Below are positions 4,762-64,000 of a stretch of DNA of 64,000 nucleotides, piece after piece. Below the pieces are notes generated by a model. That model made no database searches, was not told where the DNA came from, and worked only from the letters and a program-made list of their open reading frames with translations. The first letter of the stretch is position 1; each line of letters opens with the position of its first letter. Source of the DNA: Thermoanaerobaculia bacterium (lineage in GTDB: Bacteria; Acidobacteriota; Thermoanaerobaculia; Multivoradales; Multivoraceae). The position numbers and the translations under genes were made by a program. The DNA is taken from assembly GCA_963666565.1 (NCBI GenBank), contig OY762911.1:1696001-1760000 (forward strand), in the 5' to 3' direction.

Positions 4762-4817
4762 GGATGCGGGTCGGAAGACCCGCGCACCCGGCGGTTGGAA
4801 GACCCGCGCACCCAGCG
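4762..4817 (-). repeat. Two tandem REP-like copies
   Basis: GCGGGTCGGAAGACCCGCGCACC and GGTTGGAAGACCCGCGCACCCAG. Confidence 0.75.
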
Positions 4818-4818
4818 A

Positions 4819-6630
4819 TCAGAACGCCTCGCTCCAGGGGCGGCTCAGCCGGAGCGCGGAGTTGATCAGGCCGACCATGGAGTAGGTCTGGGGAAAGTTG
4901 CCCCAGAGTTCGCCGGTCGCGGGGTCGAGGTCTTCGGAGAGCAGCCCTACCGGGTTGCGGCGTTCGAGCATTCGCTCGAAGAGGTCGCGGGCCTCCTCGC
5001 GGCGGCCGAGGGCGTTGATCGCGTCGATGTACCAGAAGCTGCAGACGGCGAAGGAGGTGGCCGGGGCGCCGAAGTCGTCTTCCCGGTAGCGGAAGAAGTT
5101 GCTGCCGCTCCGCAGCGGTTCGAGGGAATCGACGGTGGCGGCGAAGCGGGGGTCGGCGGCGTCGAGGAAACCCAGGTCGTGGAGCAGCAGCAGGCTGGCG
5201 TCGATGCCTTCGCCGTCCAGCGTGGCGGCCAGGCCGCCGGCGCCGGTCTCGGCGTTCTCCAGGACATGCTCCCGGATCGCGGCGGCGCGGCCCGTCCAGT
5301 GCCTCTCCCGGTCGGCCAGGCCGAGCGCCGTCGCGATGCGCGCCAAGCGGTCGCAGGCGGCCCAGCACATGACGCTCGAGAACGTGTGGACGGCGCTCCG
5401 CTGCCGGAACTCCCAGAGGCCGGCGTCGGGCCGGTCGAAGAGGGCCGCGGCCTGGTCGCCGAGCTGCTCCAGCCAGCCGAACACGCGCCGGCTGCCGGGC
5501 ACGACGAGCCGCCGGTCGAAGAAGCTCTGGGTGACGGCCAGGATCGCGCTGCCGTAGTTGTCGTTCTGGAGCTGGCGCCAGGCGTCGTTGCCTACCCGCA
5601 CCGGCCCCATCCCGCGGTAGCCGGGCAGGCTGTCGACGGTGCGTTCCGTAATCTCCCGCTCGAACTTGATCCCGTAGACCGGCTGCAGCACGCCGCCCTC
5701 GGCCGCCGCGGCGAGGTTCGTGATGTAGCCGAGGTAGCCCTCCATCGTGCGGGTGGCGCCCAGCCGGTTGAGCGCCTGGACGACGAAGTGGGAGTCCCGC
5801 AGCCAGCAGAAGCGGTAGTCCCAGTTGCGGCCGCTGTCGGGCGCTTCGGGGATCGACGTGGTCATCGCCGCCAGCACCGCCCCGGTCTCCTCGAAGCTGC
5901 AGAGCTGCAGAGTGATCGCGGCCCGGATCACCGCCTCCTGCCACTCGAACGGCACGGCCAGGTGGCGCACGAACTCGCGCCACCAGGTCTCCGTCCGGCT
6001 GCGGAACTCGCGCGCCACGGAGTCGACCGGCTCGGTCAGGCTCTCGTCCGGGCCGAGCAGCAGGGTCAGCTGCTGCTCCAGGACGAAGGCGATCTCGTCC
6101 GTGATCAGCGAGACCGGCGCATCGGTGGTCAGCCGCAGGGTCAGGTCCGGGCCGACGTAGCGGACGTGGTTGCTGCCGCGGGTCACCTCCGGGCGGCGCG
6201 CACCGTAGTCGAACCGCGGCCGCAGCCGGATGCGGATGCGGGGTTCGCCGGCGACGCGTTCGACGGTGCGGACGATCGTCGTGGGCCGGAAGGAGCGGCC
6301 GAACTGTTCGAACCGGGGCGCGAAGTCGGTGATGCGGACCGCGGCGCCGGCATCGTCGCGGAGCGTCGTCACCAGGATCGCGGTGTTCTCGATGTAGTGC
6401 TGTTCGCTCTCGCGGAATCCCTCGATCACGACGTCGAAGAAGCCGCCGGCCTCGGGATCGCGGGCGCCGTCGTCGCTTCCGTTGCCGCCCAGCAGTGAGT
6501 GGAAGACGGGGTCGCCGTCGAAGTGGGGCAGGCAGGCCCAGCAGATCCGGCCGCGCGGGTCGATCAGCGCCCCGAAGCCGCAGTTCCCGATCACGCCCCC
6601 ATCGAGCGGCCGCACTTCCTCACTCGTCAC
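4819..6630 (-). CDS. Glycoside hydrolase family 15 (trehalase/glucoamylase-like)
   Basis: TTSIPE, RNWDYRFCWLRDS, DAGLWEFR, GLLSED, WGNFPQTYS; GTG start overlaps the otsB stop (GTGA). Confidence 0.9.
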   Translation of the reverse strand: MTSEEVRPLDGGVIGNCGFGALIDPRGRICWACLPHFDGDPVFHSLLGGNGSDDGARDPEAGGFFDVVIEGFRESEQHYIENTAILVTTLRDDAGAAVRITDFAPRFEQFGRSFRPTTIVRTVERVAGEPRIRIRLRPRFDYGARRPEVTRGSNHVRYVGPDLTLRLTTDAPVSLITDEIAFVLEQQLTLLLGPDESLTEPVDSVAREFRSRTETWWREFVRHLAVPFEWQEAVIRAAITLQLCSFEETGAVLAAMTTSIPEAPDSGRNWDYRFCWLRDSHFVVQALNRLGATRTMEGYLGYITNLAAAAEGGVLQPVYGIKFEREITERTVDSLPGYRGMGPVRVGNDAWRQLQNDNYGSAILAVTQSFFDRRLVVPGSRRVFGWLEQLGDQAAALFDRPDAGLWEFRQRSAVHTFSSVMCWAACDRLARIATALGLADRERHWTGRAAAIREHVLENAETGAGGLAATLDGEGIDASLLLLHDLGFLDAADPRFAATVDSLEPLRSGSNFFRYREDDFGAPATSFAVCSFWYIDAINALGRREEARDLFERMLERRNPVGLLSEDLDPATGELWGNFPQTYSMVGLINSALRLSRPWSEAF

Positions 6631-14915: not shown

Positions 14916-16015
14916 GCGGGGGCGACTTCGGCGCAGTGGCCGAGGCGGTGCGCGGGGCGGAACGGGTCGTGCCGCGCGGCGGCGGCACCAAGCCGGCGCT
15001 GTGGGCCGTGGAGGGCGCCGAGGTGCTCGATGTGTCGGTGCTCCGGGGAGTCACCGAGTACCTGCCGAGCGAGTACACGGTGACCGCCCTGGCCGGCACG
15101 CGGCTGGCGGACGTGGAGTCGCGGCTGGCGGCGGAGGGCCAGTACCTGCCGTTCGACCCGCTGCTGGTGGAGGCCGGCGGCACCGTCGGCGGCGCCGTGG
15201 CCGCCGGAGCGAACGGCCCGGGCCGGCTCCGCTACGGGGGCCTGCGCGACTTCCTGCTCGCCGTGACCTTCATCGACGGCCAGGGCGAGATCGTCCGCGG
15301 CGGCGCCAGGGTGGTGAAGAACGCCGCCGGCTTCGACCTGCCGAAGCTGATGGTCGGCAGCCTGGGGCGGCTGGGGGTCCTCACCGAATGCACGTTCAAG
15401 GTGTTCCCGCGGCCGGAGAGCTGCGCCACCCTCCGCGTCGTCGGCATGGCGCTCGACGAGGCCCTGGAGGCGGCCGGCCGCGTGGGCGCGGGCGCGGTCG
15501 AACTCGAGTGCCTCGACCTGGTCCACGGCCTGGCTGGCTGGGACCTGGAGATCCGCATCGGCGGCCGCGGCACGGCGCTCGACGCACGGCTGAAACGCAC
15601 GGCCGACCTGCTCGACACCGACGTCGCAACGCTCTCGGGCGATGCCGACGCGACGCACTGGCGTGCCCGCCGCGAGTTCGGCTGGGCCTCGCCGGACGCC
15701 TCCGTCCTCAAGCTCCCGCTGACTCCGGCCACGGCCGGCGCCCTGGAAGATGTCCTCGCCGGGCTTGACGCCGGGAGCATCGGCAGGGTCTACGGCGCCG
15801 GCGTCCAGCAGGCGTTTCTCGCCTGGCCTTCGGAACGCGCCGCCGACCTGCCGGCCCTGGACCGCGCCCTCGCCGGGGCCAGACTGACCGCGCTGGCCCT
15901 GCGCGCCCCGGCCGCCGCCGCCGCCGGGCCCATCCTCGGCTACCGCACCGGTGGCGCACTCCTGCGCCGCGTCCGGCGGGCTCTCGACCCGGACGGCCGC
16001 TTCGGCCGGCTGTAG
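14912..16015 (+). CDS. glcE: Glycolate oxidase FAD-binding subunit
   Basis: [45 protein letters not shown]; ATGA overlap with glcD. Confidence 0.85.
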
Positions 16016-16060
16016 CGCTGCGGGACGCCGGAGCGCCGGCGCACCGGGCCAACGCGAAGA

Positions 16061-16213
16061 CTTGCAATCTGCCGAGGCCGAAACCTGCAATCCGCCGGCG
16101 TCCAAACCTGCAATCTGCCGAAGCCTGAATCTGCATTCTGCCGACGCACAAACCTTCAATCTGCCGACCTTGAACCTTGCAATCTGCCGACACCTGACCT
16201 TACAATCAGCCGA
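16061..16213 (+). repeat. 7-unit direct-repeat array, exact 23-bp period (15-bp core YYTGCAATCTGCCGA + 8 variable bp)
   Basis: Units start at 16061, 16084, 16107, 16130, 16153, 16176 and 16199; the last core ends on the A of ATG 16213. Confidence 0.95.
16177..16206 (+). promoter_or_regulatory. Putative sigma70 promoter embedded in the array (leaderless)
   Basis: TTGCAA (16177) - 18 bp - TACAAT (16201) - 6 bp - ATG; no Shine-Dalgarno. Confidence 0.6.
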
Positions 16214-17559
16214 TGCCAGAGCCGGTCCTGTTCCCACGCCTCGCTGAGCGCCGACTCGTCGAAGCCCTGGAAGACTCGCCCGTCGTCCTCATCCACGGAC
16301 CGCGACAGTGCGGCAAGACGACGCTGGCCCGCATGGCGGCGGCCGGTCCCGACCGGCTCGGCTACGCCTACGTCAGTCTGGACGACGCGGTTGCCCGCGA
16401 CAGTGCCCGGCACGATCCGGCGGGATTCGTCGGCGAGTTTCCGGACCGGGTCATACTGGACGAGGTTCAGCGCGCACCGGAACTGTTCGAGGCGATCAAG
16501 CTGGAGGTGGACCGCAGGCGGAAGCCCGGCCGTTTCCTGCTCACGGGTTCGACGAACGTGCTGCTCCTGCCGACGCTGTCCGAGTCGCTCGCGGGGCGTC
16601 TGGAGATCGTTCGGCTTCATCCCCTGGCGCAGCGAGAGACCACGCCCCAACCGACGGCACCGGTGGGCGACGCGGCCCAACCGAAGGCGCCGGCGGGCGG
16701 CGCGCCACGCCGCGAGTTCCTGGACGCTCTGTTCGGCGGCGGATTCGGCGTCCGCCGGACGGAGCGGCTCGGCGCCGAACTTCCAGAGCGAGTCGCGGCC
16801 GGCGGCTTTGCGCCGGCGGTGCTTCGTCCCACTCACCGGCGCCGGGCGAACTGGCACCGGAGCTACGTCGAAACGCTGGTCGCCCGGGACGTGCGGGACG
16901 TGGCGAACATCCGGTCTCTCGACGTGCTGCCGAGGTTGCTTTCGGCCGTTGCCAGCCAGACCGCGCGCTTGTTCAACCTGACGGACCTGGCCGCGCCGTT
17001 CCAGCTCAGCCGGCCGACGATCGGCGACTACGTGGCGCTGCTTGAGCGCCTGTTCCTGTTCGAGCGGCTTCTCCCCTGGCACAGCAATCGTCTGAGCCGG
17101 CTCGTCAAGAGTCCGAAGCTCCACTTCGTGGACACCGGCGTCGCGACCACGCTTCTGGGCACGAGTCCGGCGGGTTTGATGGCGGACCGCCGCCTGCTCG
17201 GACAGCTACTCGAGAGCTTCGTTTACCAGGAGCTCCGGCGACAGGCCGGCTGGCACGACGCCCCGTTCGAGTTCTTCCACTTCCGCGACCGGGACGGCTA
17301 CGAGGTCGACGTCGTGATCGAGCAGGGACCGGCGGCCGTGGCCGGCGTCGAAGTCAAGGCGGCCGCCACGGTCAGAACGTCCGACTTCCGAGGCCTGCGG
17401 AAGCTGGCTGCGGCCACAGGCGACCGCTTCGCCGGCGGAGTGGTGCTGTACGACGGCGAAATGACCGCACGCTTCGGAGACCGGCTCCACGCGGTGCCCG
17501 TCCGCCGCCTCTGGGAGGCAACAGGCCGTCCTGGAAGGCTACGACGAACTACACAGTAG
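16213..17559 (+). CDS. AAA_14 + DUF4143 ATPase with C-terminal PD-(D/E)xK-like domain
   Basis: Walker A GPRQCGKT, Walker B ILDEVQ, FLLTGS, ESLAGR, KSPKLHFVDTG, EVDVVIE...GVEVK. Confidence 0.9.
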   Translation: MPEPVLFPRLAERRLVEALEDSPVVLIHGPRQCGKTTLARMAAAGPDRLGYAYVSLDDAVARDSARHDPAGFVGEFPDRVILDEVQRAPELFEAIKLEVDRRRKPGRFLLTGSTNVLLLPTLSESLAGRLEIVRLHPLAQRETTPQPTAPVGDAAQPKAPAGGAPRREFLDALFGGGFGVRRTERLGAELPERVAAGGFAPAVLRPTHRRRANWHRSYVETLVARDVRDVANIRSLDVLPRLLSAVASQTARLFNLTDLAAPFQLSRPTIGDYVALLERLFLFERLLPWHSNRLSRLVKSPKLHFVDTGVATTLLGTSPAGLMADRRLLGQLLESFVYQELRRQAGWHDAPFEFFHFRDRDGYEVDVVIEQGPAAVAGVEVKAAATVRTSDFRGLRKLAAATGDRFAGGVVLYDGEMTARFGDRLHAVPVRRLWEATGRPGRLRRTTQ

Positions 17560-17577
17560 TGCGCGCACACCTAGGGC

Positions 17578-17622
17578 TTGCGCTGCCGCCTGGCATCCTG
17601 TAGGGTGTCGGGACTACAGGAT
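17578..17622 (+). promoter_or_regulatory. Putative promoter overlapped by a 9-bp inverted-repeat operator
   Basis: TTGCGC-N17-TAGGGT; ATCCTGTAG (17595-17603) N10 CTACAGGAT (17614-17622); GGAGG before ATG 17645. Confidence 0.55.
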
Positions 17623-17644
17623 AGACTCTGTATCGGAGGGTTGT

Positions 17645-18304
17645 ATGAGCGTACAGGAGTACATCGAGGGCGTGCTTAGGCGGGCCGAGGAGCAGCTCGC
17701 CGTGCGGCTGAAGGAGGCTGTGGAGGATCGCCAGTACGCCGCCGCTGCTGAACTCGCATCGACCTCGGAGCGGGTGCGAGACTTGGTCGAATCCGTGGGC
17801 AACGCGGAGCGAAGCCGTGACCAGCAGGAGATGGGGCTCGCACCCAGTACGGAGGCCGACGCCCGCCGGTTAGCAAGGGCTCGCGCCTCGACTGGTCCTT
17901 CCTCAAGGGGTCCCGAGCGGAGGACGAGCAGGCGATACCCGAGGTTCATTCGCTCCGAGGGTCGTCTGGTCAAGGTTGGATGGTCAAAACGGGACCGAGC
18001 GGAGTACGAACATCGTGCCTCGGAGGCATCCGTGCGGGCGGTGGCAGCGGCGGTTCGTGATCTGGAGTCGCACGAGTTTTCGATGAATCAGTTGATGCCA
18101 GTGGACGACGGAAGTGGAGCGGAAGTCCCTTCCTATCAGGTGTACTTGATCGTGGCGTGGCTACGATCCCTCGGTGCGGTGCGAAGAGCAGGCCGGGGAG
18201 GCTATGTGAGCGTTCCCGATGGCCTGTCTACTGCCGCAATGGAGCAACACTGGCGCGCGTTGGACCCGGACCCAAGCGCGAACGGAGGAATCAGCAGTGA
18301 GTGA
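17645..18304 (+). CDS. Hypothetical protein: N-terminal helical region plus possible winged-helix C-terminus
   Basis: Good RBS; overlaps the next gene; C-terminal helix-wing pattern SYQVYLIVAWLRSLGAVRRAGRGGY. Confidence 0.7.
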   Translation: MSVQEYIEGVLRRAEEQLAVRLKEAVEDRQYAAAAELASTSERVRDLVESVGNAERSRDQQEMGLAPSTEADARRLARARASTGPSSRGPERRTSRRYPRFIRSEGRLVKVGWSKRDRAEYEHRASEASVRAVAAAVRDLESHEFSMNQLMPVDDGSGAEVPSYQVYLIVAWLRSLGAVRRAGRGGYVSVPDGLSTAAMEQHWRALDPDPSANGGISSE

Positions 18305-20816
18305 CGCGAGAAACCGGGAGTTGGCGCGCAGGCTTCTCCGCGCTGATTCGGAGGCCGACGTGGTGAAGATCCTTGAGCAGGAAGGCTTGTGGCGCGATGC
18401 GAAGTGCTGGCGGCTCTATGGGGATCGTGACGGGAACTTCTCGGTCATCGGGAATCAGCAGAGTCGTCCTGAGGCGGCTCTCGTCGAGAAGATCGTGAAC
18501 TCGGTTGATGCCCGGCTGATGAAAGAGTGTCTCGCACGCAGTATCGATCCGAGTTCGACGGACGCTCCTCAGTCTGTGCGCGAAGCAGTGGCGAGTTTCG
18601 TCGACGGCGTTGAACCAGAGAGTGAAACGGCCGGGGAGGTTCGTTTCTGGCCTCGCCAGAGACAACGGGAGCAAGCTCGTCAGATCACTCTCGCTGTGAC
18701 TGGCTCGAAGCCACGCCAGGCGGGAGGTGCATCGATAACGGTCGTCGACCTCGGAGAGGGTCAGTATCCGGAGAAGATGCCGACGACCTTCCTCTCCATC
18801 GATCGCGAGAACAAGCTGCGCATCCCGTTCGTGCAGGGCAAGTTCAACATGGGCGGTACAGGCGCACTCAAGTTCTGTGGGCGTAGCGGGCTGCAGTTGG
18901 TCATCACTCGGCGATGTCCAGACATCGTCGGCGCGGACGGCGGCGCGGAGTCACCTTGGGGGTTCACTGTCGTCCGAAGAGAACGGCCCGTCGAGGGCGC
19001 CGGAGAAATCCGCAACTCCGTCTATCGCTACCTTGCCCCCGTTGGAGCTGACGAAAGGCCAGGACGTGGCGCTGTCCTACAGTTCGCCGCGGCGAGGATC
19101 GAAGCCCTTCCAGAGAAGAACCAGGCATACGTGCGGAGCCTCCCTTGGGGGTCAGTCCTGAAGCTCTACGAGTACGACATGAAGGGTTTTGGTAGCCATG
19201 CTCTGCTGCCAGGCGGCCTCCTTGGCCGCCTTGAACTGATGCTTCCAGGGATAGCGCTCCCGGTACGAGTCCACGAGTGTCGCTCCTTCGGAGGTGATCC
19301 GAAAAGGAGCTTCGATACGACGTTACTTGGCCTCGCGGCACGTCTGGAAGCCGACCGGGCCAACAACTTGGAAGAGGGCTACCCAACGTCGGCTCTGATA
19401 CAGCTCGTCGGCCAGGATCTCCCTGTTGAGATCTACGCGTTCAAGCCCAAGAAAGCGGACAAGTACCGCTCGACTGAGGGTATCGTCTTCACGATCAACG
19501 GTCAGACTCATGGGTCGCTGTCGAAGGCCTTCTTTTCCCGCAAGAGGGTGAAGATGGGGCGGCTCGCGGACTCACTGTTGATAGTGGTCGACTGCTCGAG
19601 GCTTTCCGTAGACGCGCGGGAAGACCTGTTCATGAACAGCCGTGACCGGCTCAGCAACGGAGAGCTTCGAAAGGACATCGAGCGTGAACTGGAGGACCTT
19701 ATCGGTCGCCATCACGGTCTCAGGGAGCTGCGCGACCGCCGCAAGGCGGAGGAGATCGCGCAGAGACTCGAAGACTCGAAACCGCTAGAGGACGTACTCG
19801 ATACGCTTCTGCGGACATCTCCTACTCTCAACCGGCTTTTCCTACAGGGTCAACGGCTCGGCCGGCCGCATCGGGCCGGCACGAAGGGAGGAACCAACAA
19901 CGGGGCTGGTCAGCCCGGGAAGTACGTGGGAAAGGCCCACCCCACGTACTTTCGGTTCGCCAAGAAGCCCGACGCTGACTTTCTCCGGAGGTCAGCAGAG
20001 AAGGGCCGGAGATGTCGGATCAAGTTCGAGACGGACGTTGCGAACGACTACTTCAAGAGGCCCTCAGTTCCGGGTCGGTACACGGTCGAGGTCATTGGAG
20101 GGCCAGTGGAAGGCCGCGATGTGGCGCACAGTCTCGTGCTGCACGATGGAGTGGCCAACTGGAGCGTCCGTCTTCCGGACGATCTGGAGATCGGCGATGA
20201 AGTGACACTGCAGTGCACCGTCGCGGACGATTCGCTGATCGAGCCCTTCGTGAGCGTGGTCGAAATCTCGATCGTGCCGCAGGGACGAAGACAGTCAGGC
20301 AAGAGGAGTAAGCGCGAGCGCCGGCTGGACTCGGGCGACTCGACAGGCGGAAACGGCCAGGGGGGCAAGGGAAGTGACAACGAGGCCGGGATTCAGCTTC
20401 CGCACATTGAGCGTCTGAGAGAGAAGGACCCGTTATGGAGTGAGAGGGGGTTCGACCACTACACCGGATGCGAAGTCGTGGACGACTCGGACGTCGAGAA
20501 GGCGGCTAACGGGAGAGACCTGACCTTCTACGTGAACATGTCGAACCGAGCCTTGGAGACGGACCTGAAGGACAGTCGCGAGGATGCGAGGGTCGTCGAG
20601 GCGAAGTTCGTGTACGCAAACGTGCTCGTAGGTCTGGGACTTCTGAATGACCCTCGACAGGCGGGAGACGACGCGTCCGATTCCCTGGAGACGGCCGAAA
20701 CGCGCGTGGCCTCTACGACAAGGGCTCTGGCGCCCTTTCTTCTTCCCATGATCGACTTCCTCGGATCACTGGGTCCTGAGGACGTTTCGGCAGGGGGCGT
20801 CGGCGACGAGGACTAG
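18297..20816 (+). CDS. Uncharacterised large GHKL (MORC/Hsp90-like) ATPase
   Basis: ALVEKIVNSVDA (N-box), VVDLGEGQ (G1), QGKFNMGGTG (G2); S5-like FTINGQTHG...NSRDRL; GTG 18297 with GGAGG upstream. Confidence 0.75.
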   Translation: MSDARNRELARRLLRADSEADVVKILEQEGLWRDAKCWRLYGDRDGNFSVIGNQQSRPEAALVEKIVNSVDARLMKECLARSIDPSSTDAPQSVREAVASFVDGVEPESETAGEVRFWPRQRQREQARQITLAVTGSKPRQAGGASITVVDLGEGQYPEKMPTTFLSIDRENKLRIPFVQGKFNMGGTGALKFCGRSGLQLVITRRCPDIVGADGGAESPWGFTVVRRERPVEGAGEIRNSVYRYLAPVGADERPGRGAVLQFAAARIEALPEKNQAYVRSLPWGSVLKLYEYDMKGFGSHALLPGGLLGRLELMLPGIALPVRVHECRSFGGDPKRSFDTTLLGLAARLEADRANNLEEGYPTSALIQLVGQDLPVEIYAFKPKKADKYRSTEGIVFTINGQTHGSLSKAFFSRKRVKMGRLADSLLIVVDCSRLSVDAREDLFMNSRDRLSNGELRKDIERELEDLIGRHHGLRELRDRRKAEEIAQRLEDSKPLEDVLDTLLRTSPTLNRLFLQGQRLGRPHRAGTKGGTNNGAGQPGKYVGKAHPTYFRFAKKPDADFLRRSAEKGRRCRIKFETDVANDYFKRPSVPGRYTVEVIGGPVEGRDVAHSLVLHDGVANWSVRLPDDLEIGDEVTLQCTVADDSLIEPFVSVVEISIVPQGRRQSGKRSKRERRLDSGDSTGGNGQGGKGSDNEAGIQLPHIERLREKDPLWSERGFDHYTGCEVVDDSDVEKAANGRDLTFYVNMSNRALETDLKDSREDARVVEAKFVYANVLVGLGLLNDPRQAGDDASDSLETAETRVASTTRALAPFLLPMIDFLGSLGPEDVSAGGVGDED

Positions 20817-22590
20817 CTAGTGCCTGCCAGAAAACTCAGTTCCGACGGGATTCCTGGGCAAGTTTGAGGCTGTTGGCAGGCGCAAGAGGTCTGCGCAGGA
20901 GCCTGTGATCGGCGGCGACGGCGCTCCCTGGGGTTTCTTGGCGGCGATTCCCGGCGATGACGGCCGTTCGGGCACGGCGGCGCCTCCGGTCTCGCGCGGG
21001 CTGTCTTCGACGGAGGCTGCGGTGACGGTCAGGCGGCCCGGCGGCGCTTGCGTGCGCGTGCTTGCAGGAGCCGGCCCAGCCGGTGCAGGTTGCCCGCGAG
21101 CACCGAGAGCGCGACGGTGCGCTCGAAGCCTTCGGCGCCGCGGCTTCTGACGCGGTCGAGGCCGCGATGCTCCAGAGCGTTGATGGCGGACTCGACCGCG
21201 GGATGGGCACGGCGGGCGGAGAGGAAGGCTTCGTCGGTTTCCCGCTCCCGGTCGGCCTTCGACAGATACCCCTTCTTCGGCAGCGCGTTGAGGTCGAGAA
21301 GCTCGTCGAGCCGGACGCGGTTCTCCCGGCTGTGGAAGTTGCGGTCGAAACTGCACGCCCGAAGCTCGGGGAACCGCTTCTGCGCCGCCGCGACCAGGGG
21401 CACGACCGCATCGGCGTCGCCGCCCTTCCACATGACCTCGTGGTGAAGAACGAATCCGTGCTGATCCTCGATCAACGCCACCGGAACGCCGAGCTCCACC
21501 GGCGTACCCGCCTTCCCCTTCGACACCCAGCGCGTGTGCGGCTCGAAGATCGAAAACACCTTCTCCTCGTGAGGAATCGTCTCGCCCAGGAGCAGACGAC
21601 GCTCGACCTGGTCCATCTGGCGCCGCGCGTGAACGATCAAGCCCTAGAATCGTCTCCGCGGCCATGCCGTCCCCCGCGGCACGAAGCGCCTCCACCGTGT
21701 CCGCCGCGCGCGCCACGAGCGGCCGGCACCGATCGAGGTACGCCTTCACCCGGGCCGGAGACCGCTTCGCCCGCCGAGTCCCGCGCACCTTGTGGAACAG
21801 CCGGCGCACCAACCGAAGCTGATAACGCCACTGGCGCCAGCCAGAGATGCCGTGCCGACGCGCCGCCCGACCGCTCTCCCGCAGCATGCAGCGCATCGCG
21901 TCCCACAGCAGATTCACGTCCGTCGGGTAATGCACGTCGGTCTCGACCACGAACGAATCACACCGACCGCGCAACGGCCCGCCAGGCTTTTTTCGCGCGA
22001 CCGCATGGCCGCTTTCCACCACCAATCTGCCCACCGCCGACAACAACTCCGGCGTCAACAGGCTCACGTTGTCGACCACCGTCTGGTACTCGTAGTAGCT
22101 CTCCTCCCCGAAATCGCCGTGCCCCAGAAACGCACGCAGCGTCCCGTGATGGTTGGCCAGATCGTGAAGCCGGTCGAAGTCGCAGCCGAGACCCTGTTTC
22201 ACCACCCCCAACACCAGAATCCGCCACAACTCCATGCCCGGACGACCGACCGTCCGATCCGTACCCGGCAGCATGTGCTCGTCCAGCAACTCGAACAGCC
22301 GGGGCCGCAACGTCTCGTCGCAGTAGATGTGCTGAAGACCGCGAAACAGCGCCGGCGTGTCGTCGCGAGACTTCGGGTCGATCCAGATCTCGCCGATCGG
22401 CGCCTCGCCCAGCCTGAACTGCCGACTTTGAATCTCCCGCATCGCCTCGACCTCCGAAGATCCTCCCGAATCCGCCCAAAACGTCCGATTCAGGACTGGA
22501 TCCTACGGCATCGGCGACATCTTCAACCGACCGAATCCCTCGCAAAACCCCGTAGAATCAACGACTCCCGGGTTTTCTGGCGGGCACTAG
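20817..22590 (-). mobile_element. Insertion sequence (ISNCY / IS5-like DDE)
   Basis: Terminal IRs TGCCTGCCAGAAAAC (20821) and GTTTTCTGGCGGGCA (22572-22586), 14/15 match; CTAG on both sides (target duplication or IR tip). Confidence 0.9.
21029..22442 (-). pseudogene. DDE transposase with a +1 frameshift near 21642
   Basis: N-part DPKSRDD, GRPGMELW, RCDSFVVETDVHYPTD; C-part EKVFSIFEPHT, SFDRNF, HPAVESAINALE in another frame; one extra G in CTAGGGCTTG. Confidence 0.85.
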
Positions 22591-22595
22591 CTTAG

Positions 22596-23768
22596 CTAGC
22601 TCGCTCTGTGCACCAGAACGACCTCGCGCGCGGTTGGCGCCTTAGTGCGCAGCGAGGCGTGCCACCGGCGCCTAGGGACTTCGCGCCAGATTCGGCCGGC
22701 TTCGGGCAGCGGTGCTTCGACAAAGCCGGCAGTCCCGAGAGTCTCTAGGTAGAGGGACAAGTGAGCTTCTGGCTTTGAGAAGCCCACGACCTGGACTAGT
22801 CTGGCGCCGTCGCGTACGACGCGACGTATGGCTGACATTCTCTCGCCGAGTAGATTGAAGTAGTTCCGGCCTTGCCGGCCCCCCATCGTGTAGTACGACT
22901 CTCCACGCCCGTCCCTGGCTGCTGCGATCCAGAAGGGGACGGAGGTTTCTCTGCCGCCGCCTGTTTGCCAGCGATGATAGAGAACGTGGACTCCAGGGTA
23001 TGGCGGGCTCGTTACGACGAGGTCAGCGCGGGTTCCATTCGCGAAAGGTCGCACCGAACCTATGTTGAGGGCGTCCGAGGTAATGAGGCGTGGCTTGACG
23101 AGGCGTGGCTGGTGGACGCCTTTGGCCTCCGCTTGCTCCCAGAGTGACTCGAAGTCCTTCAACATTCTGTGGATGACTGTGTGCAGCCGTTCGCGGAAAG
23201 CGACCGCTGTCGCGACCTCTCGGCGCCCATCTATGGCCCACTGCGCTGCGTTCAAGATAGCCCCACGGGCGACTCTCTCTACTGTCGGGTCGGTGTCGTC
23301 CGGGAGGCCGGATAGAGCGACGCGGATGAGCTTGCGAATGGCTCCGCGAGCAGGTCCGGTGAGGTTCTGAAAGATCTCTGGTGGCGGCTGGTTCGTCTCG
23401 CTAATTGCGTCGTGGTATCGAATATTTCTGACGGTGACGTCCGCCCATGTGTTCAACACGCTTGCCGCGTGCGGCGATACTCGGGATGTCTTCAGCTTGG
23501 CGAGGAAAGTTGCAAGTTCACTGATGTCCAGACAGACCGTACTTCGGCCCGTCGCGATCGCTTCGACTGCGGTTGTGCCGCCACCGGAGAAAGGATCCAG
23601 CACCAACTCTCCCGGTTGGGAGAACTGGCGAATGGCGGCACTCGCCAGTTGAGGCGAGAAGCGACCAGGGTAACGGTAAAAGCCGTGGGTCAGGCCAGCT
23701 ACGGGACTCGGATCCAGAGCTGCTCGACGCAGGGCCTCGAACTCAGTGTGTAGATGAGACACGACCAT
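22596..23768 (-). CDS. Site-specific DNA methyltransferase (amino-MTase, probably N4-cytosine, alpha-type motif order)
   Basis: THGFYRYPGRFSP, VLDPFSGGGTT (motif I) before VVTSPPY (motif IV). Confidence 0.88.
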   Translation of the reverse strand: MVVSHLHTEFEALRRAALDPSPVAGLTHGFYRYPGRFSPQLASAAIRQFSQPGELVLDPFSGGGTTAVEAIATGRSTVCLDISELATFLAKLKTSRVSPHAASVLNTWADVTVRNIRYHDAISETNQPPPEIFQNLTGPARGAIRKLIRVALSGLPDDTDPTVERVARGAILNAAQWAIDGRREVATAVAFRERLHTVIHRMLKDFESLWEQAEAKGVHQPRLVKPRLITSDALNIGSVRPFANGTRADLVVTSPPYPGVHVLYHRWQTGGGRETSVPFWIAAARDGRGESYYTMGGRQGRNYFNLLGERMSAIRRVVRDGARLVQVVGFSKPEAHLSLYLETLGTAGFVEAPLPEAGRIWREVPRRRWHASLRTKAPTAREVVLVHRAS

Positions 23769-23825
23769 TGCCGCTCGGGTGCCGTCGAGGCTGGTGAGTA
23801 GTTCAGCAGTTCCAGAGCAGCTTCC

Positions 23826-34601: not shown

Positions 34602-36626
34602 TCATTCGGACGCCTCCGACGCCGTTGCGCCGTCCGTCCGTTCGCGCCAGAGGCGTTCGATGCCGGCGGCGGTCGGTTCGTGTGCGCATTTCACGTTGCC
34701 CGCTCCGGCGCTCCGGAGCGCCGCGGCCGTCGTGGCCCCGATCGCCCAGCAGCTTCCCGGCCAGTCGAGGCCGGACGCCGGGAAGGCCGCGACCGCCGAC
34801 GGAGCGGTGAAGAGTACGCGGGCGCGGGCCGCTTGCCAACCCTCGGGCCAGCCCAGGTCGTCCTTCGGATGCACCGTGTAGGCAGCCCAGGCGGTGACCT
34901 CCCGGCCGGCCGCCTCGAGCGCCTCGACGAGCGGGGCGCCGCCGCGGGCGGAATGCGGCACGAACAGCGGGCAGCGCGGGTCGAGGACGCGGGCCGCGTA
35001 GCCGGCGAAGTCCTCGCCCCCCGAGGCCCGCGCCGCGAGGTTCGGCGGCACGCCGGCCGCGAGCAACGCGCGCGCCGTGCCTTCGCCGAGCGCGCACCAC
35101 GGCAGGCGGCCCCAGACGGGATCCCGCTCCGCTCGCTCGACGACCACGCGCGCCGCCGTAGGTGACGAAACGAGCAGCCACGGCCACCGGCGGCGCGGCC
35201 TCTCAAGTTCGATGCGGCCGGCCGGCCAGGGCGTGTCGAAGACCTCGACTTCCGTCGCCGGCAGGGCTGCGACCCGGATGCGGGGATCGAGCCGGCCGGT
35301 CAGCCGGCGCACGGCAATCGGCGACGAAGTGACGACGAGATCCGGCACGCCGATGCCCGTCTCGTCAGGAGCCTTCCGCTCCCTGGGTGCGCGGGTCTTC
35401 CGACCCGCACTGGGTGCGCGGGTCTTCTGACCCGCCGCCGCCGAAGGCGGCCTAAAGACCCCGCCGGCCGCAAGGCCGGCATCCACTCCGCCAAGATCCC
35501 GCTCCAACCGCTCCGCCAGCGCGTCAAGTTCGCCACCGCCGTCGCCGTCCGCCGCCGCAGCCGCAGCGTGAACCACGCCTGGCGCCTCCCCGGCCGCGGC
35601 GGACTCGCGCCAGTCGTCCGGCGCAATCAGCGCATGGACCTCGCGCGGCGCCGGCCTCTCCGACTCTCCATCGCCGACCTCCGCCCACGCGCCGAACGGC
35701 CGCAGGCAGCCGCCCCCGAGCCGGCCGAGCAGGCCCCGCTCCGCGAGAACCGCGACCCGGCTCGGGGCGTGGTCGAGCGCCGCCATCGCCAGATGCCCGT
35801 CGAGCCGGCCTCCGCGCAGGATCTGCACCGCCAGAGCCCCCTGACCGGGAGCGCACGGCCAACTCCTCAGGTCGAGCCGGAAGCCACGCACCGCGGCCGC
35901 CGACCCGTCGAGCGCTCCACTGCGAGCCAGCCGCAGAACGCCGGCCTCCGCCGCCAGCAGAGCGTCGATCGCCCCGCTCCGGAGCCACTCCAGCCGGCGA
36001 CCCACCGACCCGCGCACCGCGCAGCAGACGAGATCCCGCCGGATCGCGAGCGCCCCGGCCTGCCGCCGTGGCGACGACGTACCCAGGCGTGCCCCGGCCG
36101 GCAGGAGAGCGAACGCCTCGGTGGCCGGAGTCGCGCTCTCGCCGACGGCCGTCTCGTCGCCCTCGAGCAGTTCCTCAAGTTGCGACGTCGACCCCGCCGC
36201 TCCGGCTGCACCCATCGCGCCGGTCGCCTCGGCTGGCCCCGTCGGCCCCGCTGTCCCGGCCGCCTCGGCTGCCTCCGCCGCCCCGACTGCCCCGGCGGCC
36301 TCCAACTTCGGCGCGAACAGCAGAAGATCGAACGGCCGCTCCCGTTCCGGCACGGCGGCGATGACCAGCCCCGGTTCGTTCTCGACAGGCAGGTCCTTCA
36401 GCGAGTGAACGACGAGGTCGACCGAGCCATCGCGCAGAGCAGCGCTCAGTTCGCCGGTGAAGACCCCCTTGGCCTGGGCGAAACTGCCGCCGAGGCTGCG
36501 GTCGCCCTGAGAGGACATGGCGCGGACTACGGTCGCCAAGCCCACTTCGCGGAGCCGGCGGGCGACGAGATCGGCCTGAATCCGCGCCAGCGGCGTCGCC
36601 CGAGTGCCGATGACGATGGGGTCCAC
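34602..36626 (-). CDS. hemC: Fused hydroxymethylbilane synthase - uroporphyrinogen III synthase (HemC-HemD)
   Basis: IGTR, VHSLKDLP, LGTSSPRR, APGQGAL, LGGGC; C-terminal LVSSP, ALGEGTA, FTAPSAV, AIGATTA; GTG 36626. Confidence 0.85.
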   Translation of the reverse strand: MDPIVIGTRATPLARIQADLVARRLREVGLATVVRAMSSQGDRSLGGSFAQAKGVFTGELSAALRDGSVDLVVHSLKDLPVENEPGLVIAAVPERERPFDLLLFAPKLEAAGAVGAAEAAEAAGTAGPTGPAEATGAMGAAGAAGSTSQLEELLEGDETAVGESATPATEAFALLPAGARLGTSSPRRQAGALAIRRDLVCCAVRGSVGRRLEWLRSGAIDALLAAEAGVLRLARSGALDGSAAAVRGFRLDLRSWPCAPGQGALAVQILRGGRLDGHLAMAALDHAPSRVAVLAERGLLGRLGGGCLRPFGAWAEVGDGESERPAPREVHALIAPDDWRESAAAGEAPGVVHAAAAAADGDGGGELDALAERLERDLGGVDAGLAAGGVFRPPSAAAGQKTRAPSAGRKTRAPRERKAPDETGIGVPDLVVTSSPIAVRRLTGRLDPRIRVAALPATEVEVFDTPWPAGRIELERPRRRWPWLLVSSPTAARVVVERAERDPVWGRLPWCALGEGTARALLAAGVPPNLAARASGGEDFAGYAARVLDPRCPLFVPHSARGGAPLVEALEAAGREVTAWAAYTVHPKDDLGWPEGWQAARARVLFTAPSAVAAFPASGLDWPGSCWAIGATTAAALRSAGAGNVKCAHEPTAAGIERLWRERTDGATASEASE
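35383..35435 (+). repeat. Two REP-like copies (27-bp period) in-frame in the HemC-HemD linker
   Basis: CTGGGTGCGCGGGTCTTCCGACCCGCA followed by a near-identical copy. Confidence 0.85.
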
Positions 36627-38628: not shown

Positions 38629-38640
38629 CGCTTGATCCCG

Positions 38641-38718
38641 CTGGGTGCGCCGGCGCCCTCGCCGGCTTCCGAGAGAGACGCGCCGACTGTCGGTGCGCGG
38701 GCCTTCTGGCCCGCATCC
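38641..38718 (+). repeat. Two REP-like copies with covariant stems
   Basis: GGTGC-GCCGGCG-CCCT-CGCCGGC and GGTGC-GCGGGCC-TTCT-GGCCCGC. Confidence 0.75.
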
Positions 38719-38777
38719 GGCGCGAAGCGCCGGCCTCCGCGAGTGCTGCCGCAGCGGCGCGGCCAGGGGAGGCGGAG

Positions 38778-41801: not shown

Positions 41802-41953
41802 GCCGGGTGTCGGTGCGCGGGTCTTCCGACCCGCATCCGCCGGGTGTCGGTGCGCGGGTCTTCCGACCCGCATCCGCCGGGCGTCGGTGCGCGGGTCTTC
41901 CGACCCGCATCCGCCGGGTGTCGGTGCGCGGGTCTTCCGACCCGCATCCGCCG
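41802..41953 (+). repeat. Four tandem 37-bp units each carrying the REP-like hairpin
   Basis: GCCGGGTGTCGGTGCGCGGGTCTTCCGACCCGCATCC at 41802, 41839, 41876 and 41913; one mismatch overall; no spacers. Confidence 0.95.
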
Positions 41954-62228: not shown

Positions 62229-64000
62229 GGAGCGTTCGCCGGCAGCACGACGCGGAACGTCGTCCGGCCGGGCTCGCTGTCCACGGCGATCGAGCCGCCG
62301 TGCTCTTCGATCGTGCTGCGGGCGAGGCTGAGGCCCAGGCCGGAACCGGGCAACGTGCTCTCGGTTGCCGCCCGGCCGCGGACGAAGGGCTCGAAGATGC
62401 GCCGCTGCTCGGCCTTCGGGATGCCGGGACCTCCGTCGGTGACGGAGACGACGACTCGTTGTCGGCCGGCGTCGCAACTGGCGACGACCCGTACCCGCGC
62501 GATGCCGTCGTCGCTCCGGCCGTACTTCACCGCGTTATGCAGGAGGTTCAGGAACACGCGAATCAGGGCGCTGCGGTCGCCGCTGACCGTCGGTAGATCG
62601 TCCAGTCCGTCGACTTCCAGTTCAACGCCGTTCTCGTCCACGAACCAGTTCGATTCGGCGATTGTCGTGCGCAGCAGTTCGCTCAGGTCGATCTCGACCG
62701 GGGCTTTCCGCGCCGAAGTCCGGCCGATGCCCGCCCACTGGAGCGCCTGTTCGACCAGCCGCATGAGTCGGCGCCCCTCGCGGTCGATGAGTTCGCCGTA
62801 GCCGCGGACATCCTCCGGCTCGCGGACGACGCCGGCACGCAGGTTCTCGCCCGCCGAACGGATCGCCTGGAGCGGCGTGTTCAGTTCGTGGGACACGCCG
62901 GCCACGAAGTCGACCTGCTGCGCCGCCAGCGCCCGGGCCCGACGGGCGGAGACCAGGACCAGCGCGAAGGCGACGCCGATCAGGAACAGGGCGCCGGAAC
63001 TGATGTAGAGGTTGCGCCGGCGGGCCGCCTCCGTGGCGGCTTCGAGCGATCCTCGGCGGTGCGTGATGCGCACCAGCCAGGCGCCGTCCGTCAGGTCCGG
63101 TTCGGCCGCGCCGCCCCGACGCGCTCGCTCGCCGAACAGGAAGAGACGCCGGTCGTCGCGGTCGATCGGTCGGAAGTCCGGCCCGTCGCGGCGTTCGGGG
63201 AACGGCCGCGTCCGAAGCGCCCGGAACTCGATGTCCGCGGTTCCGGATGGGTTCCTGGACGTGCGCCCTGGAGGGCTGGCCGGCTCGGGATAGAGATGGC
63301 GCGGCGCGGGACCGGACACGTCGGTCACCGAAACCAGGTACGGCGGCGCCTCGCCTGGAGACCCGGCGCCGAAGTGGTGTTCGATCAGCGCGGGCAGCAT
63401 CTCCCGTTCGAGCACCGCGACGTCCAGGCTGGCCACGATCAGGGTCGCCCGTGGGCCGGGCCGGCCGCCGGGTGTACGGGCGGGGACCGGAATCACCAGT
63501 CGATCCGGACGGGCCTCGGGCGGGTGGCGGTCTGGCGGCCGCAAGGGGCGAACCAGCTCGTTCAGGTCGTCGGGTCCCGGGTCCGGCTGCAATCGGCCGC
63601 TGTCCTCGTCGAGCCGGGAGGCGACGAGCGTTCCTTCGCGGCGGTCGGCGAAGACGATCCAGGTCTCGTCCAGAAGGTCCGGAAAGGCGGCGATCTCGCG
63701 CCAGTCCCGTACGGCTCGCGCGACCAGCACCTCGGACGATTCCGACGCGCCGCCCCGGCCACGGCGCGGATCGTCCCGGGCCGCAAGCCAGGCCCCTGCC
63801 GCGGCCGTTCGCCGACCGATGCGCTGGAAGGAGGCATGGAGCTGAGCCAGCGGGGCGTCGATGTCGTTGGCGAGCAACCGGCTCGACTCCTCCAGGTTCG
63901 CCCGCATCCGCTCGTTGGCGGCGGTGCTCAGCTCGCCGGTCCAGCGGTACTGCAGGACGGCGAGCGTCACGAGCAGCAACGAGGCGGCCACCGCGACGAA
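62225..64000 (-). CDS. Sensor histidine kinase (5' end beyond the window)
   Basis: Two TM segments; VSHELNTPL, NLLHNAVKY, DGGPGI, IFEPF, GSGLGL. Confidence 0.92.
   Translation of the reverse strand, partial: FVAVAASLLLVTLAVLQYRWTGELSTAANERMRANLEESSRLLANDIDAPLAQLHASFQRIGRRTAAAGAWLAARDDPRRGRGGASESSEVLVARAVRDWREIAAFPDLLDETWIVFADRREGTLVASRLDEDSGRLQPDPGPDDLNELVRPLRPPDRHPPEARPDRLVIPVPARTPGGRPGPRATLIVASLDVAVLEREMLPALIEHHFGAGSPGEAPPYLVSVTDVSGPAPRHLYPEPASPPGRTSRNPSGTADIEFRALRTRPFPERRDGPDFRPIDRDDRRLFLFGERARRGGAAEPDLTDGAWLVRITHRRGSLEAATEAARRRNLYISSGALFLIGVAFALVLVSARRARALAAQQVDFVAGVSHELNTPLQAIRSAGENLRAGVVREPEDVRGYGELIDREGRRLMRLVEQALQWAGIGRTSARKAPVEIDLSELLRTTIAESNWFVDENGVELEVDGLDDLPTVSGDRSALIRVFLNLLHNAVKYGRSDDGIARVRVVASCDAGRQRVVVSVTDGGPGIPKAEQRRIFEPFVRGRAATESTLPGSGLGLSLARSTIEEHGGSIAVDSEPGRTTFRVVLPANAP

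Follow-up and report, generated by a model that had tools for sequence, protein, structure and literature searches.

Why should a gene for a predicted ATPase-nuclease be preceded by a stack of near-identical DNA sites, the last of which runs into its start codon? The question arises from a 64-kb stretch of DNA from a Thermoanaerobaculia bacterium (64,000 nt, hereafter the window), where a phased direct-repeat array is followed by a gene (16213..17559, plus strand) encoding a 448-aa protein with AAA_14 and DUF4143 domains. PADLOC identifies the protein as PDC-S01 (HMM PDLC04790, residues 6-436, E 2.3e-156), a system called from this single gene; the locus shares with PDC-S01 the protein family and the single-gene composition, and the array is an added feature to a system defined by its protein alone. 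In the accessible part of its description, PDC-S01 is an unvalidated defence candidate, and AAA_14-DUF4143 proteins rank fourth in frequency among the candidate defence systems of prokaryotes, with mechanism and target undescribed (PMC12988326); according to the accessible part of a second report, one representative conferred no protection against T4, T5 and T7 (10.1101/2024.09.26.614923). The accessible portions of the PDC-S01 literature mention neither an array that could regulate the gene nor a DNA target or a mechanism; searches with the AAA_14 name or with the core 13-mers returned nothing connected to the family, and no published description of the array was found in the literature. A DNA element that is conserved, cognate to the protein and built into the promoter would provide a first concrete handle on this family.

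The array and the start of the gene

The array occupies positions 16061-16215 on the plus strand and consists of seven head-to-tail units starting at 16061, 16084, 16107, 16130, 16153, 16176 and 16199. The six intervals are all exactly 23 bp, and TRF delimits essentially the same segment (16061-16217, period 23, 6.8 copies), confirming the seven phased units that had been proposed from inspection of the letters. In a scan of the 64 kb, the 13-nt core TGCAATCTGCCGA was found with 0-2 mismatches at 7/7 phased positions and, at that stringency, at a single place outside the array (63588, 2 mismatches). When up to 3 mismatches were allowed, the 18 matches in the 64 kb were at chance level (16.0 expected, sd 3.8); thus, the array signal resides in clustering, phasing and low mismatch count, and not in the total number of matches. 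No clustered minus-strand copy of the core was present in the window. The family consensus, CTTKCAATYRGMCG after AA, leaves ~5 free bases per unit. The 8-bp linkers had been described as all different, but they are not entirely free: unit position 22 is A in all six linkers of the window, and family-wide an A stands at position 21 in 73% and at position 22 in 84% of units, with 16-20 alone unconstrained. Since the period of 23 is not divisible by 3, the array is not a peptide repeat. Its GC content is 48-60%, with 70-85% on both flanks.

A promoter scan of positions 15500-18000 identified one sigma-70-like site, TTGCAA-18-TACAAT, with 9/12 matches, and shuffled sequences gave a mean of 0.0 sites. 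The -35-like hexamer (16177..16182, plus strand) lies within unit 6 and the -10-like hexamer (16201..16206, plus strand) within unit 7. The original prediction had placed these boxes at the 23-bp pitch of the array; both boxes are indeed located in the last two units, but their starts are 24 bp apart, the spacer being 18 bp. The -10 is separated by 6 nt from the ATG at 16213, whose A is position 15 of unit 7, so that the last core runs into the start codon, as had been noted. With the -10 this close, transcription likely begins on the A of the ATG or on a base adjoining it, and the mRNA is, judging from the sequence, probably leaderless. The locus would then be an unusually clean natural case in which operator array, -35, -10 and leaderless start codon are contained in one repeat.

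Conservation across the protein family

The architecture was compared over a close set of 81 loci, comprising the window and 80 homologues with 51-88% identity from 15 phylum-level groups. Within 400 bp upstream of the gene, at least one unit with the same core was found in 80/81 loci and at least two in 78/81, showing that phased upstream arrays accompany the close homologues; of the 212 unit spacings, 179 measure 23 bp and 20 measure 22 bp (199/212 at 22-23 bp), and in 52/81 loci the distance from the first base of the last unit to the start codon is 14-15 nt. Orientation is nearly invariant: 292 upstream units have the same strand as the gene, and 1 has the opposite strand. A repeat scattered over the genome would have counted against a dedicated element; across the 64-kb window and ~870 kb of homologous loci, matches are instead concentrated upstream of the gene, where the upstream windows (33 kb in total) contain 292, versus 65 plus-strand and 20 minus-strand matches in ~835 kb elsewhere.

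The promoter reading also extends to the whole family. In 54/81 loci a TAnnnT hexamer precedes the start codon at a distance of 4-9 nt (6-7 nt in 49); it is exactly TACAAT in 35/81, and a TT[GT] hexamer at a 16-18-bp spacer accompanies 52 of the 54 loci having a -10; a Shine-Dalgarno-like sequence upstream of the start was detected in 2/81. An A at unit position 4 is almost confined to the last unit of the family loci. The other 27 close loci are without TAnnnT at the right distance, and several of these still have their last unit abutting the ATG.

Among 2,101 neighbouring ORFs at the 81 loci, the largest neighbour family reaches 7/81; the lack of any other gene conserved beside the array supports the one-gene system that had been suggested and leaves no rival candidate for the binder. 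Type I restriction-modification genes adjoin the family gene in 7/81 loci, as the PADLOC 'embedding' rationale expects. The window gene itself is chromosomal, with glcDE on one side and housekeeping genes on the other, and two further genomes show the same synteny. The protein family matched 22,321 cluster representatives at E ≤0.001, and homologues are present on 389 of 72,556 plasmid records; a 'distant' DNA search with the array against plasmids gave no match.

Further, the core changes along with the protein, as the original prediction required. Among 20 distant homologues (24-48% identity), 9 have arrays of 22-23-bp period with unrelated cores, 8 are without this periodicity and 3 are marginal; two of the 8 carry instead an inverted repeat adjoining or overlapping the start codon. 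Three different cores occur on Rhizobiaceae plasmids, with the period of 22-23 bp maintained. Cultured bacteria with an array at a family homologue include Sinorhizobium fredii NGR234 (pNGR234b), Salipiger profundus (pTPRO7) and Rhizobium sp. CCGE532. Within single loci, unit pairs with randomised linkers (142 pairs, 45 loci) have the same base at 67% of variable core positions, versus 42% sharing of the core variant between loci; none of 2000 permutations reached the within-locus value, a similarity that could be partly due to base composition. Core position 12 (A/C) was compared with every protein column over the 81-protein tree, and no associated column emerged from this test, which had no power, with only 5 independent pairs on supported branches.

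Array length is variable. Very long arrays occur at two loci, with ~28 units in L075 and ~13 in L059, numbers that far exceed an operator's need. Additional same-strand units are located 8-61 nt past the stop codon in a Gemmatimonadota clade and a few other loci.

Domain architecture of the encoded protein

Both expected Pfam profiles match above their gathering cut-offs and in the order that places the protein in the AAA_14-DUF4143 family: AAA_14 (PF13173) at residues 22-143 (E 9e-26, 90.8 bits, cut-off 27) and DUF4143 (PF13635) at residues 225-383 (E 2e-44, 151.8 bits, cut-off 28.1). No NCBIfam family matched the protein. Most of 35 aligned homologues share the same start methionine, a few being extended N-terminally (as annotated) or starting later. 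The structure model used was built from alignment A2 (116 diverse rows, pLDDT 92.7), an earlier model from the shallow alignment A1 (pLDDT 58.5) having been discarded.

The AAA+ core (16276..16641, plus strand; residues 22-143) has an intact Walker A motif (GPRQCGKTT, G29-T37), an intact Walker B motif (ILDE 81-84, with D83-E84) and a conserved R129. Residues K35, D83 and E84 are kept in 81/81 close homologues and in 114-115 of the 116 rows of alignment A2. By these intact motifs the protein is an AAA+ P-loop NTPase, with ATP hydrolysis predicted. A winged helix-turn-helix follows in the model (16918..17127, plus strand; residues 236-305), with helices at 236-247, 256-263 and 267-279 and wing strands at 283-286 and 302-305, the helix 267-279 being the putative recognition helix; the HTH_IclR profile matches residues 236-279 weakly, below cut-off (E 0.019). 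Within the one-core subfamily, conservation peaks in the recognition helix and the wing (entropy 0.86-0.92 versus 1.20 overall), and their conservation among distant members is only average.

The C-terminal part (17188..17511, plus strand; residues 326-433) corresponds, by model and conservation, to a PD-(D/E)xK nuclease domain with E334, E340, D366, E380 and K382. D366 and E380 are each kept in 80/81 close homologues and K382 in 81/81, and these three residues are located on model strands 364-371 and 375-381; with the triad on core strands, the domain belongs in the model to the PD-(D/E)xK superfamily, and nuclease activity is predicted. A restriction-endonuclease-like C-terminal fold had been anticipated for proteins of this kind, and DUF4143 is listed as a PD-(D/E)xK family in the accessible part of PMC3424549.

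The best fold matches of the model were the Orc1/Cdc6-DNA complexes 2qby_A (E 4e-6) and 2v1u_A. The matches to 2qby_A, 2v1u_A and 2qby_B have a probability of 1.00 and global TM-scores of just 0.23-0.28; therefore, the likeness lies in domain type and order, with a winged helix after the AAA+ domain, and not in overall shape. Sequence similarity to Orc1/Cdc6 is insignificant: the ORC-CDC6-like Pfam match is weak (E 0.097), and a search of the PDB by sequence gave nothing significant, the best match being 2fna (E 0.0019) over the P-loop region only.

Candidate functions of the array

In our judgement, the array (16061-16215) is rather probably the cognate operator-promoter of the adjoining gene, on which the protein polymerises with one protomer per unit and regulates its own expression. 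Each 23-bp unit would constitute one site, with two conserved blocks (AAnCTTKCAAT and GMCG) about one helical turn apart, and would be bound by one protomer through the winged helix, with the AAA+ domain possibly assisting, as in Orc1 on origin recognition boxes. Head-to-tail contacts between protomers would lead to cooperative occupancy, and the filled array would block RNA polymerase, because units 6 and 7 double as -35 and -10. A potentially toxic nuclease would in this way be kept under steep negative autoregulation by a self-contained module of ~1.5 kb, formed by array and gene. This module is duplicated and appears to pass from phylum to phylum in one piece: its duplicated or closely related copies have in common no more than the array, the ORF and ≤40 nt past it. 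We infer here that the encoded protein is itself the binder, together with its stoichiometry on the units, the cooperativity, repression in preference to activation, and any role of ATP. In the mechanism first suggested, oligomerisation of the ATPase on the array would lead either to repression or to its own sequestration.

Known systems display several elements of this arrangement. An Orc1/Cdc6 gene usually adjoins its repeated sites, and on origin recognition boxes one protomer occupies an asymmetric element of about two helical turns; unlike Orc1/Cdc6, the protein described here has an added C-terminal PD-(D/E)xK nuclease, there is no unwinding element or replication context, and the promoter is merged with an array whose sites follow one another strictly head to tail every 23 bp. 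In ParR-parC of plasmid R1 and in omega on its heptad arrays, direct repeats embrace the promoter of the binder's own operon and cooperative binding represses it, resembling the direct-repeat array around the promoter of the proposed binder's gene. However, ParR and omega are small ribbon-helix-helix proteins whose arrays are centromeres with 7-11-bp periods, whereas the putative binder here is a 50-kDa ATPase-nuclease with no partition genes among its neighbours.

If the array is a self-regulating operator, every family member would have a predicted DNA ligand readable from the genome, the fixed 22-23 bp per site would constrain how the protein assembles on DNA, and there would be a simple account of how a nuclease gene is safely carried across phyla. 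Clones that omit or truncate the native array, or that use a foreign promoter, may misregulate the gene, and such misregulation could be one cause of negative phage assays. That a gene of this family can be under regulation is shown by Thermus TT_P0211, whose expression rises 6.6-fold in a plasmid-bearing strain according to the accessible part of the source (PMC4406477).

A wider reading, which we regard as unlikely, takes the array as a platform on which a polymer of the Orc1-like AAA+ nuclease is held inactive on 'self', the module sensing foreign DNA. An incoming replicon with phased iteron-like repeats of its own, or one that perturbs the filament, would titrate the polymer or re-template it, with de-repression of the gene and release of the nuclease as the consequence; the ~28-unit array of L075 and the units past the stop codon would then be storage or looping sites. 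If so, a defence candidate that is among the commonest in prokaryotes would have its DNA specificity legible in its own promoter.

It is similarly doubtful that the units mark the end or boundary of a mobile or recombining module, with the nuclease as mobility enzyme and regulation secondary, either as multi-site ends like those of Tn7 or Mu or as excision sites between direct repeats. In favour of this reading, what paralogues and close relatives have in common is exactly array plus ORF; copies 2-6% diverged in protein occur in different phyla; and the 15 phylum-level labels require 23 changes on the tree versus a minimum of 14. Consistent with mobility are also L054, where an array accompanies a truncated gene remnant, the fast gain and loss of units (three syntenic loci have 7, 4 and 4, and L075 shows a higher-order repeat of 8 units), and the downstream same-strand units of the Gemmatimonadota clade and a few other loci. 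At the TnsB sites of Tn7 and the ends of Mu, several ~22-bp protein-binding sites likewise adjoin the first gene of an element with AAA+ ATPase and PD-(D/E)xK nuclease functions, as the packed units do here beside a gene for which both functions are predicted. In contrast to those ends, there is no second inverted end, transposase or target duplication here: across the 81 loci, the 20 inverted copies of the core are scattered minus-strand matches, none clustered, and no terminal inverted repeats or target duplications were found at the borders of L004/L010 and L065/L071. A transposon end with multiple transposase sites was rejected on these grounds. Moreover, the abutment on the start codon and the -10 variant exclusive to the last unit fit promoter function, not mobility.

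Quite improbable, in our view, is a stack of promoter-like elements that serves RNA polymerase or a general host factor and has no dedicated binder, the repeated TTGCAA/TTTCAA -35-like boxes acting as polymerase traps or UP-like elements. The core does hold TTGCAA or TTTCAA, and each adjacent pair of units mimics a -35, an 18-bp spacer and a -10. However, the conserved element spans 16-18 bp, with GMCG and AA blocks foreign to sigma-70 recognition; one core is found across 15 phylum-level groups with differing transcription machinery; and the distant homologues keep the period with cores unlike promoter boxes, including the three within Rhizobiaceae.

We give very little credence to an origin of replication of the iteron type, or a partition site, belonging to an integrated element with the ATPase as initiator, a reading for which the Orc1/Cdc6-like fold, the plasmid-borne homologues and the matching 22-23-bp period of plasmid iterons can be cited. 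In iteron plasmids (RK2, R6K, F, pPS10), Rep binds 17-22-bp iterons with a period of ~22 bp and represses its own gene, usually through an operator that is a separate inverted repeat. The window array (23 bp) and 199/212 family spacings fall at the iteron period, and the locus shares with these plasmids phased direct repeats of about two helical turns with a conserved core, variable linkers, an adjoining cognate protein and, as we propose, autoregulation of the adjoining gene. Unlike in iteron plasmids, the protein is an AAA+ nuclease (AAA_14/DUF4143) and not a Rep with two winged helices, the direct repeats themselves are the promoter, and the locus is chromosomal and syntenic in its glcDE-housekeeping context. 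The locus has no Rep initiator, DnaA box within 5 kb (DnaA-box-like 9-mers come no closer than 10277 and 23168) or AT-rich unwinding stretch, GC being at least 48% throughout the array and higher beside it; a replication origin was discarded for lack of an AT-rich flank and a nearby DnaA box. Also against it, a genome can carry several copies (L004/L010, L020/L028), and the nuclease motif is conserved, which would not be anticipated in an initiator.

An RNA role (a repeat-spacer transcript, a protein-bound 5' leader or a type III antitoxin-like repeat RNA) had already been thought less likely and appears extremely improbable: direct repeats immediately 5' of a nuclease gene would suit it, as would the longer leader possible in the 27/81 loci without a -10 at the expected place, but the sole promoter-like site of the window locus lies in units 6-7, leaving the other units upstream of the transcript, the free linkers of ~5 nt are too short for spacers, no terminator was found between array and gene, no Rfam family matched anywhere in the window, and neither strand of 16050-16215 folds better than shuffles (z +0.49, +1.14), on which basis a CRISPR array and a type III toxin-antitoxin repeat RNA were ruled out.

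Two further features concern the window copy of the gene. A 30-bp tandem duplication (16646..16704, plus strand) falls in a disordered linker (residues ~145-167, model confidence 57-78) and is common only to the 98%-identical protein P0001. Finally, relative to the syntenic locus L001, a 6.3-kb insertion (17518..23821), lying outside the module, supplants the last codons of the gene and results in an 11-aa C-terminal extension.

Array and promoter of the ATPase-nuclease gene

Seven head-to-tail units starting at 16061, 16084, 16107, 16130, 16153, 16176 and 16199 constitute an array (16061-16215) in which all intervals between units are exactly 23 bp, and Tandem Repeats Finder returned the same period with 6.8 copies, bearing out the seven phased units of the original prediction. 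Each of the seven phased positions carries the 13-base core with 0-2 mismatches, and elsewhere in the 64-kb window a match of this quality occurred only at 63588 (2 mismatches). Core matches with up to 3 mismatches numbered 18 in the window, at chance level (16.0 expected, sd 3.8); thus, the array signal resides in clustering and phasing. A peptide repeat cannot be encoded at a period of 23.

The promoter scan identified a single sigma-70-like site within 15500-18000 (mean of 0.0 in shuffles), constituted by a -35-like TTGCAA (16177-16182) and a -10-like TACAAT (16201-16206). These are the boxes that had been assigned to units 6 and 7, but the proposed 23-bp pitch did not hold, as the spacer is 18 bp and the hexamers start 24 bp apart. 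The A of the ATG at 16213 is position 15 of the last unit; since only 6 bases separate the -10 box from this codon, and no Shine-Dalgarno sequence precedes it, the spacing indicates that the transcript is probably leaderless, starting at the start codon.

A genome-collection scan with the family alignment yielded 568 confirmed relatives among 599 candidates, from which the best 80 loci were kept (51-88% identity to the window protein; 15 phylum-level groups), giving 81 loci with the window. A position weight matrix was refined on the upstream regions and then run over the whole loci, the same matrix outside the upstream windows serving as its own control. As had been predicted for homologues, phased arrays were found upstream: at least one unit lay within 400 bp in 80 of 81 loci and at least two in 78, with a median of 4 units per locus by a lenient count, and 179 of 212 spacings were 23 bp and 20 were 22 bp. 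The last unit begins 14-15 nt before the start codon in 52 of 81 loci, offsets being imprecise in 9 loci where the projected start is no start codon. Furthermore, the repeat is not scattered, with 292 units on the gene's strand versus 1 on the opposite strand in the upstream windows, and 65 plus-strand versus 20 minus-strand matches in approximately 835 kb outside them, where several of the plus-strand matches are real secondary arrays. In L061, the sole locus lacking a unit above threshold, an apparent coding sequence extends nearly as far as the start codon, and all that is kept of a last unit is its 3' half; the array may have been displaced by insertion.

The 23-column unit profile is conserved at positions 1-14 and again at 21-22 (AA), and only 16-20 are free, so that conservation falls into two blocks per unit, separated by about one helical turn, and the 8-bp linkers, formerly described as all different, are not wholly free. 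An A at unit position 4 is almost exclusive to the last unit, where TTGCAAT or TTTCAAT becomes TTACAAT. A TAnnnT ending 4-9 nt before the start codon was found in 54 of 81 loci (TACAAT in 35), accompanied by a TT[GT] hexamer 16-18 bp upstream in 52 of these 54, while a Shine-Dalgarno-like sequence was present in 2 of 81.

The encoded protein and its probable match to the array

The gene (16213-17559) encodes 448 aa with AAA_14 and DUF4143 matches above cut-offs, and PADLOC assigned the product, along its entire length (E 2e-156), to its single-gene candidate defence class PDC-S01. In the literature, DUF4143 counts among the PD-(D/E)xK families without an assigned function (PMC3424549). PDC-S01 is treated there as a candidate still to be validated, fourth in frequency among the defences of prokaryotes (PMC12988326), and it topped the single loci of a rumen survey (PMC13356809); one representative is reported to give no protection against T4, T5 and T7 in E. 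coli (10.1101/2024.09.26.614923). The main text of the preprint introducing these candidates names neither the family nor an upstream repeat (10.1101/2024.01.29.577857), and no account of the array was found in full-text literature on the family or the core sequences outside subscription journals.

Most of 35 homologues aligned with the window protein share its start methionine (MxEPxxYPR), with an annotated N-terminal extension or a later start in a few. A structure model built from 116 diverse sequences (pLDDT 92.7, pTM 0.93), replacing a poor one from a shallow alignment, displays an AAA+ core, a disordered linker, a helical lid, a winged helix-turn-helix (residues 236-305) and a PD-(D/E)xK domain (residues 326-433). 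The lysine of Walker A, the DE pair of Walker B and, in the nuclease, D366, E380 and K382 are each retained by 80-81 of the 81 close homologues. Searched by sequence, the PDB gave nothing significant for the product; the top fold matches were archaeal Orc1/Cdc6 on origin DNA (2qby_A, E 4e-6; 2v1u_A), followed by the archaeal ATPases 2fna and 2qen and CED-4/Apaf-1, all with low global TM-scores (0.23-0.40). A 30-bp tandem duplication at 16646-16704 (2.0 copies, 86% matches), in the low-confidence linker between AAA+ core and lid, is common only to the window protein and a 98%-identical homologue (P0001). Among homologues of 63-74% identity, most have an insertion directly after the P-loop helix, variable and about 25-30 residues long (columns 100-130 of the shallow alignment), which the window's clade lacks.

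Three lines of evidence support, without proving, that the array is cognate to the gene's own product: no neighbouring gene is conserved, each locus has its own dialect of the core, and distant homologues keep the geometry without the sequence. Among 2,101 flanking ORFs, the largest neighbour family, type I restriction-modification HsdM and HsdS, was found in just 7 of 81 loci (L032, L042, L050, L051, L062, L068 and L071; Pfam confirmed both on two examples), neighbours that fit the "embedding" rationale of PADLOC's nomination of the family; a Fic/DOC protein lies near the module in 4 loci. At five variable core positions, variant agreement was 67% within loci versus 42% between loci, a level reached by 0 of 2,000 permutations and to which base composition may contribute in part; this comparison comprised 142 unit pairs from 45 loci whose linkers had diverged to random (linker identity 0.19). 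The distant set comprised 20 homologues (24-48% identity), of which plasmids from cultured bacteria supplied 16 and phage-labelled contigs the other 4. Directly upstream, 9 displayed significant periodicity of 22 or 23 bp, a level that none of 200 shuffles attained, with cores unrelated to that of the window; three different ones are found among Rhizobiaceae plasmids, and another belongs to Bacteroides uniformis, whose homologue is 24% identical. Periodicity was marginal in 3 and absent in 8, two of which (Thermus and Moraxella) carry instead an inverted repeat that adjoins the start codon or overlaps it.

In the close subfamily, conservation peaks at the recognition helix and wing (entropy 0.86-0.92 versus 1.20 overall), which are only average among distant members; residues 264-268, 290, 293-294 and 304 do not vary within the close set but do so in the distant one. 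Residue-to-base covariation showed no association, with just 5 independent contrasts.

Proposed autoregulation, possible module mobility and alternative readings

The best-supported reading of these comparisons is that the product would occupy its own array through the winged helix, one protomer per 23-bp unit, possibly assisted by the AAA+ domain as in Orc1; head-to-tail contacts between protomers would make binding cooperative, and filling of the last two units would block the promoter built from them. The outcome would be steep negative autoregulation of the nuclease, the gene bringing its own control wherever it lands. To the extent that sequence comparison allows, the iteron-like array of the original prediction, on which the ATPase would oligomerise, is supported; we infer the stoichiometry, the ATP dependence and the sign of the effect, repression instead of activation. 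It may be speculated that, at about 2.2 helical turns per 23 bp, successive sites rotated by some 70 degrees would accommodate a helical protein array better than a flat one. An outside hint of regulation is Thermus thermophilus TT_P0211 (AAA_14, DUF4143), reported to rise 6.6-fold in a plasmid-bearing strain only with Argonaute present (PMC4406477). Both the protein family and the principle of iteron-like autoregulation are known; their combination, in which a cognate array of fixed 22-23-bp spacing merges with a leaderless promoter and is kept across a very large candidate-defence family, appears to be new and is open to direct test.

The strongest rival holds that the array is the boundary of a mobile module. 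Copies within one genome (L004/L010, 14 kb apart; L020/L028) share only the array, the ORF and up to about 40 nt past the stop, as do the near-identical L065/L071 from different genomes, borders that favour this reading; no terminal repeats or target duplications were visible at them. It also draws on L054, which carries two more arrays downstream, at about 3.2 kb and 4.7 kb from the gene start, the first followed by a gene copy with an internal deletion, and the second, which has five units, by no more than a short degenerate sequence like the gene's 5' end. Further, 1-3 extra units with the same core and strand lie 8-61 nt past the stop in L006, L008, L012, L013, L030 and L041, and post-stop units also occur in L036, L070 and L080, the clearest cases belonging to a Gemmatimonadota clade; no convincing ORF follows them, the 70-102-aa ORFs in L012, L030 and L080 looking spurious. 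Such units might serve in looping, mark a module boundary or be left over from a tandem copy. However, a second, inverted end is absent, and a boundary leaves the promoter fusion unexplained. That a host factor or polymerase alone reads the array fails, because cores diverge along with the protein inside one host family. A replication origin does not fit the composition and context, and an RNA role is without support.

Phyla are intermixed at short distances on the homologue tree, which is compatible with horizontal transfer but not proof of it. Of 72,556 plasmid records, 389 carry homologues; among 50,697 phage records the number is only 7, and each of these is an unverified metagenomic contig.

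Array growth and other features of the window

The window is syntenic with two homologous loci, L001 and L002, with glcD and glcE upstream. Four promoter-proximal units align among the three, and where the window has three extra distal units L001 and L002 are degenerate, which indicates that arrays grow and decay at the distal end. Expanded arrays were found in two loci from Bryobacterales genomes: L075 (4299-4978), with about 28 units and a 184-bp (8-unit) higher-order repeat of 3.3 copies at 96% identity, and L059 (4677-4974), with a 46-bp double unit of 6.5 copies at 99% identity.

Relative to L001, the window carries a 6.3-kb insertion (17518-23821) that swaps the last codons of the ATPase gene, creating an 11-aa C-terminal extension seen in 0 of 35 aligned homologues. 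It includes ORFs of 219 aa (17645-18304) and 865 aa (18219-20816) with no Pfam match, and, on the minus strand, an ISNCY-family transposase (20817-22442) and an N6_N4 DNA methylase (22596-23768). The nearest Atlas clusters of the 865-aa ORF are unnamed, and HATPase_c_3, present in 26-30% of the members of some, is only a lead. Finally, a REP-like hairpin repeat with a GC-rich stem and a TTCC loop was found at 4769-4824, 35383-35435, 38640-38740 and 41802-41953, one copy forming a 37-bp tandem array (4.1 copies, 98% identity), and the hairpin also lies directly after the ATPase gene in L001.
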